DNA of 64,000 nt from the NCBI RefSeq assembly GCF_013167455.1, contig NZ_CP038328.1. One strand, 5' to 3'. The DNA comes from Escherichia coli O157:H7. GTDB lineage: Bacteria > Pseudomonadota > Gammaproteobacteria > Enterobacterales > Enterobacteriaceae. Positions 25,455 through 25,598 of this stretch are shown here, piece after piece (the stretch's first letter is position 1; each line of letters starts with the position of its first letter). The translations under genes were made by a program, and so were the position numbers. Below the pieces are notes generated by a model that searched no databases, had not been told where the DNA came from, and saw only the letters and a list, made by a program, of their open reading frames with translations.

Positions 25455-25598
25455 ACGTCGCATCAGGCGCTGATTGTCGGATGCGGCGTGAACGCCTTAT
25501 CCGACCTACGGTTCGGTTTTGTAGGCCTGATAAGACGCGGCAGCGTCGCATCAGGCAATGAATGCGAAACCGCGGTGTAAATAACGACAAAAACAAAA
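25455..25598. repeat. REP/BIME cluster between cpsB and cpsG
   Basis: CGTCGCATCAGGCGCTGATTGTCGGATGCGGCGTGAACGCCTTATCCGACCTAC...GTAGGCCTGATAAGACGCGGCAGCGTCGCATCAGGC. Confidence 0.7.

Follow-up and report, generated by a model that had tools for sequence, protein, structure and literature searches.

REP/BIME repeats in the intergenic gaps of the colanic acid operon of Escherichia coli O157:H7 and in its neighbourhood

Results

The locus and its features

The window, i.e., the whole stretch of 64,000 nucleotides analysed here, is 100% identical to E. coli O157:H7 chromosomes. Its genes, RNA motifs and repeat units are collected in Table 1, where the five repeat-bearing places are numbered as sites 1 to 5. 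One JUMPstart/ops element heads the colanic acid operon and the other heads the O157 O-antigen cluster, so both long polysaccharide operons are candidates for RfaH control; the ops element upstream of wza is the loading site of RfaH. In the asmA-yegH gap (8357-8975, minus strand), an HTH antitoxin paired with a toxin of the RelE/ParE family is given by the public O157 annotation.

Table 1. Genes, RNA motifs and repeat units of the window (positions counted from its first nucleotide; hairpin energies in kcal/mol)
Feature	Position	Strand	Remarks
alkA	530-1378		window start; public annotation and ORF map
Site 1, degenerate Y	1387-1420	+	8 nt past the alkA stop; hairpin largely lost (-9.3, non-canonical fold)
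Site 1, intact Z2	1426-1462	-	94% to consensus; hairpin -21.9
udk-dcd-asmA-yegH	between alkA and the colanic acid operon		public annotation and ORF map
JUMPstart element	11075-11113		Rfam, 57 bits
ops element GGCGGTAGCGTG	11102-11113	+	intact, within the JUMPstart leader of wza
Colanic acid operon	wza 11292 to wcaM 34028	+	
Site 2, single intact Y	15070-15104	-	1 mismatch; hairpin -20.9
Site 3, Z2 tail CGTCGCATCAGGC	25456-25468	-	13 nt; begins 1 nt past the cpsB TAA stop
Site 3, intact Y	25476-25509	+	2 mismatches; hairpin -19.2
Site 3, head-to-head linker GGTTCGGTTTT	25510-25520	.	11 nt; predicted pairing with the right flank 25565-25578
Site 3, intact Z2	25521-25557	-	97% to consensus; hairpin -21.9
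algC RNA motif (Rfam RF02929)	25593-25642	+	78 bits against a gathering score of 33.8; just 5' of the cpsG ATG (25647)
Site 4, decayed Y	29975-30009	+	substitutions against the K-12 copies disrupt the stem; hairpin only -4.6
Site 4, Z2	30029-30065	-	100% match to consensus, E = 4e-16; hairpin -21.9
gne, galF, O157 O-antigen cluster, gnd, ugd, wzz	3' of wcaM, in this order		
JUMPstart element	36540-36577		Rfam, 40 bits
his leader (hisL)	61700-61823	-	Rfam
Site 5, Y	62075-62108	+	3 mismatches; hairpin -15.2
Site 5, AT-rich L-like linker	62109-62141	.	33 nt, core AATTCAATATATTG
Site 5, decayed Z1-like unit	62142-62170	-	90% to Z1 consensus; no stable hairpin
his operon	far end of the window	-	

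REP units of the window

REP/BIME elements are among the best-known bacterial repeats. The initial annotation had proposed REP-type units after alkA, after wzc, between cpsB and cpsG, after wzxC and near hisL, and had named a REP consensus search as one check; the search proved positive at all five sites, and consensus matches, shuffled controls and a blastn-short census agree on this. The Y, Z1 and Z2 consensus sequences are those of the Gilson/Bachellier classification, and the units match them at 90-100% identity. The 34-nt Y consensus has three matches in the window at three or fewer mismatches (15070-15103 on the minus strand, 25476-25509 and 62075-62108 on the plus strand, with one to three mismatches each), against none in 100 shuffles. 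The Z2 head GTAGGCCTGATAAGACGCG has three exact matches (at 1426, 25521 and 30029) and one more at three mismatches, the shuffle mean being 0.01. In the census of the whole window the significant Y, Z1 and Z2 units are confined to the five sites (E from 6e-5 to 4e-16); all are intergenic, and no significant unit was found within coding sequence.

Copy number was estimated by megablast. Of the 5,426 complete E. coli genomes, 5,425 have matches to the REP part of the cpsB-cpsG spacer, the median being 11 places per genome (58,072 places in 5,433 records in total; a second run gave 60,145 places), and the copies of the Y-linker-Z2 composite elsewhere in E. coli genomes have 85-93% identity. The Rfam naRNA4 model, which was built on REP325, scores below its threshold on the Y and Z2 units of site 3 (39.8 and 35.1 bits). 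The flagged sequences thus show the consensus palindrome with a GTAG/CTAC head, an extragenic position, high-copy dispersal and a stable single-strand stem-loop; they are canonical E. coli REP (palindromic unit) repeats arranged as BIMEs, and this identity is near-certain. Judged from the order and orientation of the units, sites 1, 3 and 4 are assigned to the BIME-2 type (Y and Z2 in inverted orientation; site 1 is a remnant), site 2 is classed as a lone Y unit, and site 5 has the architecture ascribed to BIME-1 (Y, an L-like linker and Z1).

The ranges first assigned to the five sites all hold REPs, although they were slightly generous: 25558-25598 is flank and A-rich leader, and 15046-15137 is a whole spacer. 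Three of the sites are inside wza-wcaM, and those at alkA and hisL are outside this operon.

Two further places, at about 52175 and 54579-54606, match weakly and in part; these are not REPs but ordinary terminator hairpins of gnd and of wzz/hisI. The second belongs to a REP-arm-like hairpin (GCCGGATGCG...CGCATCCGC, 54579-54607), which adjoins the intrinsic terminator of wzz in the wzz-hisI gap. Only its arm resembles Y, and it probably serves as the terminator on the hisI side.

Arrangement of the units

Within the operon, the Y unit of site 2 lies in the 92-bp wzc-wcaA spacer, where 24 nt separate it from the wzc stop and 33 nt from the wcaA ATG. The cpsB-cpsG spacer (site 3) is 192 bp long. 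Its 13-nt Z2 tail is a direct repeat of 25544-25556, and the two copies bracket a Y-Z2 block of 88 bp. The Y unit has an alternative pairing with the Z2 tail and the 3' end of cpsB, which gives a predicted composite hairpin of -34.7 kcal/mol enclosing the UAA stop; the same is predicted for the alleles that carry both the Z2 tail and the Y unit. The end of Z2 is 89 nt from the cpsG ATG, and this distance is filled by flank and A-rich leader, together about 35 nt, followed by the algC motif. In the 179-bp wzxC-wcaK spacer (site 4) the Z2 unit is 60 nt away from the wcaK ATG. The linkers of sites 3 and 4 have in common only the GGTTC start and the TT end.

Outside the operon, the Z2 unit of site 1 stands between alkA and a convergent ORF (1479-4328, minus strand). 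Site 5 has the divergent hisL (61700-61823, minus strand) on one side and a yeeZ-like ORF (62275, plus strand) on the other; being some 250 bp upstream of the his leader, it is not in a 3' UTR. Such a divergent-gene setting is unusual for a REP. The yefM-yoeB toxin-antitoxin genes occupy the hisL-yeeZ gap in K-12 and are missing from O157 (PMC3158064), so that here the BIME-1-like element is what lies between the divergent genes (61824-62274). The whole of site 5, the linker core AATTCAATnTATTG included, can be aligned with the cmoB-torZ BIME of other strains. The linker of site 5 has no exact match to the IHF consensus WATCAANNNNTTR; by inspection, 12 of the 13 positions agree on either strand.

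Folding, termination and promoters

Stable folds, of -15 to -22 kcal/mol, were obtained for six of the ten units; of the other four, three are decayed without a stable fold and one is the 13-nt fragment; the folds of whole spacers have z-scores of -2.1 to -4.9. A scan of 14900-30300 found no terminator-like site at any REP unit on the plus strand, and the sequences 3' of the hairpins at sites 2, 3 and 4 have no T runs or U-tracts. The reading of the hairpins as intrinsic (Rho-independent) terminators is therefore rejected, because the REP hairpins lack a U-tract. Internal sigma-70 promoters were considered as another source of segmental expression and were likewise discarded, a crude scan of the REP-bearing spacers having found no sigma-70-like promoter.

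The algC RNA motif

Constraint in the cpsB-cpsG spacer is seen at the algC RNA motif and not at the BIME. The motif and the A-rich leader are kept in every cpsB-cpsG allele examined and in five Enterobacter species; these outgroup loci were obtained by a contig scan with the core of the motif. The base pair that closes the Rfam hairpin changes from G-C to A-U in Enterobacter. An alternative helix of the motif, UUGGCC/GGCCAA, is invariant and mutually exclusive with the Rfam hairpin.

Polymorphism of the three operon gaps

The cpsB-cpsG gap has alleles with no REP, with the Z2 tail only, and with one or two Y-Z2 blocks of 88 bp. K-12 is of the tail-only form: it lacks exactly the 88 bp of the Y-linker-Z2 block, which in O157 is flanked by the two copies of the 13-nt tail. 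Two blocks are present in S1-KEN-03-A and KFu019; in rl0044 and strain 10 the spacer differs in sequence, comes with a TAG stop and has no REP. The O157 form of the spacer is covered at 80% or more in 3,280 of the 5,426 complete genomes (about 60%). In Enterobacter the gap carries one REP of a lineage-specific Enterobacter type (five species).

The wzxC-wcaK gap has alleles with 0, 1, 2 or 5 Y-Z2 pairs of 96 bp, found, respectively, in an O145 strain, O157, K-12 and CMZE027. The empty spacer of the O145 strain forms a hairpin with a 13-bp stem (-17.6 kcal/mol, z = -4.7), which begins 3 nt past the wzxC stop, and the O157 BIME lies within the loop of this older hairpin (29949-30085). The two sides of the insert of about 106 bp carry an imperfect 8-bp direct repeat (CGACAACG ... 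CGGCAACG), which resembles a target-site duplication; a target-site duplication is not expected for RAYT/IS200-type mobilisation. The APEC O1:K1:H7 strain E18006 has an unrelated 161-bp spacer containing CCCCTCACCCTAACCCTCTCCCCAGGGGGCGAGGGGAC, which in our opinion resembles the BoxC repeat family of E. coli; a different repeat type would then occupy the gap in this strain. In the five Enterobacter species the gap is about 15 bp long and has no REP.

The Y unit of the wzc-wcaA gap is present in both spacer forms examined. The spacer of FORC_043 (180-356) has 177 bp, against 92 bp in the window; it has one more Y/Z-like unit (GTCGGATGCGATGCTGACGCATCTTATCCGACCTAC), and the Y tail with its flank is partly duplicated.

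The gain and loss of whole Y-Z2 blocks between short direct repeats indicates recombination or slippage among the units. Two of the three operon sites have REP-free alleles in natural isolates, and hence there is no strong requirement for REPs there.

Published expression data

Published tables of per-gene fold changes stood in for coverage steps. In K-12 treated with colicin M (PMC3599342), the log2 induction changes by -1.02 from wzc to wcaA, which is the largest drop in the operon; none of the 17 REP-free junctions drops as much, and along the operon as a whole induction falls by about 0.16 log2 per gene. This is the sole drop of about 2-fold in the published per-gene induction data, and it coincides with the REP of site 2. 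The step is 0.00 log2 across the four-unit wzxC-wcaK BIME and +0.05 log2 at cpsB-cpsG, where K-12 has no hairpin. In O157:H7 strain 86-24 (PMC5343319), the fold changes between the parent and an rcsB-disrupted strain are -18.3 for wzc, -16.4 for wcaA, -13.9 for cpsB, -14.6 for cpsG and -12.8 for wcaK, i.e., the profile is flat across the cpsB-cpsG BIME and nearly flat from wzc to wcaA. Data of this kind are weakly informative, because fold changes cancel constitutive cis effects.

Discussion

The REP observation is not new, because the wzc-to-hisL sites were already published for O157 by Iguchi et al. 2011 (PMC3158064). They reported REPs in O157 strains at wcaA-wzc, cpsG-cpsB, wcaK-wzxC and yeeZ-hisL, noted that many O157 indels involve REPs, and described the wcaA-wzc REP as conserved; the loci, the serogroup and the REP-indel observation are the same as here, and their alignment is in agreement with our identification of the units. 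Their topic, however, was recombination and not expression. The alkA site is absent from their list, as it is outside their 59-kb region, and hisI-wzz, which they list as REP-bearing, has here just the REP-arm-like hairpin. Considering the FORC_043 form, even the "conserved" wzc-wcaA site is structurally polymorphic.

RfaH-modified polymerase resists Rho. This matters for the comparison with REP325/naRNA4 of yjdMN, which has the same consensus units, the inverted Y-Z2 arrangement, amplification of tandem pairs, an intergenic position within an operon, and stable hairpins without a U-tract. REP325 differs in having many units, as against one pair here, where the Y partner is decayed at sites 1 and 4; moreover, the colanic acid operon is RfaH-controlled, and Rho-dependent attenuation should be blunted in wza-wcaM because the operon carries an intact ops/RfaH element. 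An RfaH ChIP signal has been reported at wza-wcaM (PMC9765446).

Two further systems are close. A passage of PMC2516531 states, second-hand, that a stem-loop transcriptional attenuator lies directly after wzc in the colanic acid operon, and similar hairpins 3' of wzc in Klebsiella cps clusters were described as Rho-independent-like (PMC3438125). As in the wzc attenuator of colanic acid and group 1 capsule clusters, the stem-loop of site 2 separates export genes from glycosyltransferase genes in an operon controlled by ops/RfaH; unlike the Klebsiella hairpins, it is a Y-type REP without a U-tract. Site 5 is similar to BIME-1 (RIP/RIB) in having Y, an AT-rich linker of about 33 nt and a Z1-like unit in inverted orientation, and differs in that its Z1 is decayed, the IHF consensus is missed by one base, and the setting is between divergent genes.

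It had been suggested from the start that these repeats may act as mRNA stability or partial termination elements within the operon. This suggestion stands so far as it follows the accepted general model of REPs and the attenuator stated after wzc; the data specific to the operon are thin and mixed. A REP hairpin guards the mRNA upstream of it against 3'-5' exonucleases, and many Rho-terminated transcripts have their steady-state 3' ends at such hairpins (Dar & Sorek 2018, PMC6061677), and REP325 has dual terminator-stabilizer effects that are measurable in its own operon (Harris et al. 2026 preprint). By analogy, we presume, with somewhat better than even confidence, that the best explanation is canonical REP/BIMEs with a modest role at the RNA level, as an exonuclease barrier and weak attenuator. 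Transcription would start at the Rcs-dependent wza promoter; the intact REP hairpins would be barriers to 3'-5' exonucleases (PNPase, RNase II), and the segments upstream of them (wza-wzb-wzc, and those ending with cpsB and with wzxC) would be modestly stabilised. The hairpins would be at most weak Rho-assisted attenuators, largely overridden by the RfaH loaded at ops. The effect on colanic acid gene expression is probably small, because the REP copy number varies between strains; the net effect on segmental expression is probably about 2-fold or less. Such a role is plausible, and the Y unit after wzc, retained in both spacer forms examined, is the most credible candidate for it. The cpsB-cpsG BIME is strain-variable and, in this reading, a near-neutral modulator and not a required regulatory element.

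It is possible, though doubtful in our opinion, that the repeats are neutral or selfish: the REP-associated transposase (RAYT) would spread them, or recombination would amplify them, and they would build up in the little non-coding space of a tightly packed operon with no meaningful effect on expression. The variation from 0 to 2 blocks at cpsB-cpsG and from 0 to 5 pairs at wzxC-wcaK, with REP-free natural isolates, speaks for neutrality, as do the decay of three of the ten units, the missing expression step at the four-unit BIME of K-12 and at the cpsB-cpsG BIME of O157, and the short wzxC-wcaK gap of Enterobacter (about 15 bp, no REP). Neutrality sits less well with the cpsB-cpsG gap of the five Enterobacter species, which carries a lineage-specific REP of a different type, with the wzc Y unit, which neither spacer form has lost and which stands at the junction of the largest K-12 drop, and with the dual effects of REP325 in its own operon. 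The copy-number variation and the REP-free alleles argue also against a requirement at the DNA level. According to that proposal, which we consider quite unlikely, the BIME-2 elements of sites 1, 3 and 4 would be gyrase sites relieving positive supercoiling in a 23-kb, strongly inducible operon, and site 5 would bind IHF. In its favour, binding of gyrase to REPs and BIMEs is reported to be at least 10 times as good as to random DNA, and in vivo cleavage to occur at one site for every two repeats (PMC6463007). The Y and Z2 architecture is present at sites 1, 3 and 4, but the Y unit is decayed at sites 1 and 4; the linker core of site 5 is common to another BIME-1-like element, but the linker has no strict match to the IHF consensus.

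Control of translation, whereby a REP structure near the stop codon would stall the terminating ribosome and lower the output of the upstream protein, is modelled on the rule of 15 nt or less for stop-proximal REPs, documented in a passage of PMC12306157 that cites Liang et al. We regard it as very unlikely here. The alkA REP begins 8 nt past the stop, but this proximal Y is decayed; the canonical hairpins are 24, 21 and 28 nt past the wzc, cpsB and wzxC stops, all more than 15 nt, so the sites at these three genes do not belong to the class of translation-inhibiting stop-proximal REPs. The composite hairpin of -34.7 kcal/mol does enclose the cpsB UAA stop; it is, however, a prediction, and a translating ribosome would melt it. 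The least likely of the readings is that the REPs are places at which horizontally exchanged segments of the O-antigen and colanic acid region break or join. The block indels are bracketed by short direct repeats, and among O157 strains some REP indels coincide with changes in similarity; Iguchi et al. 2011 found just a few such cases (PMC3158064), and exchange of this kind would follow from the DNA being repeated and would not be a function; it is compatible with an RNA-level role.

A more specific proposal concerns the cpsB-cpsG gap. The copy number there (none, tail only, one or two blocks) might be a strain-specific dial on the CpsB:CpsG ratio or on a processed cpsG-wcaJ-wzxC transcript. 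Such a dial would act via the composite hairpin around the cpsB stop and via the position of the block directly 5' of the invariant algC-motif leader. We think this unlikely; if it were true, the independent, lineage-specific REP of Enterobacter would reflect selection for a hairpin in this gap.

Conclusions

The significance of these observations lies mostly in annotation: the REP/BIME elements of the region are genuine, ordinary and already described for O157. On the practical side, the three gaps of the colanic acid operon are REP-polymorphic hot spots, in which spacer length is a poor marker of function and a handy marker for strain typing or recombination. The natural series of alleles (none, tail only, one or two blocks at cpsB-cpsG; 0 to 5 pairs at wzxC-wcaK) is a ready test of REP tuning within an RfaH-controlled operon.
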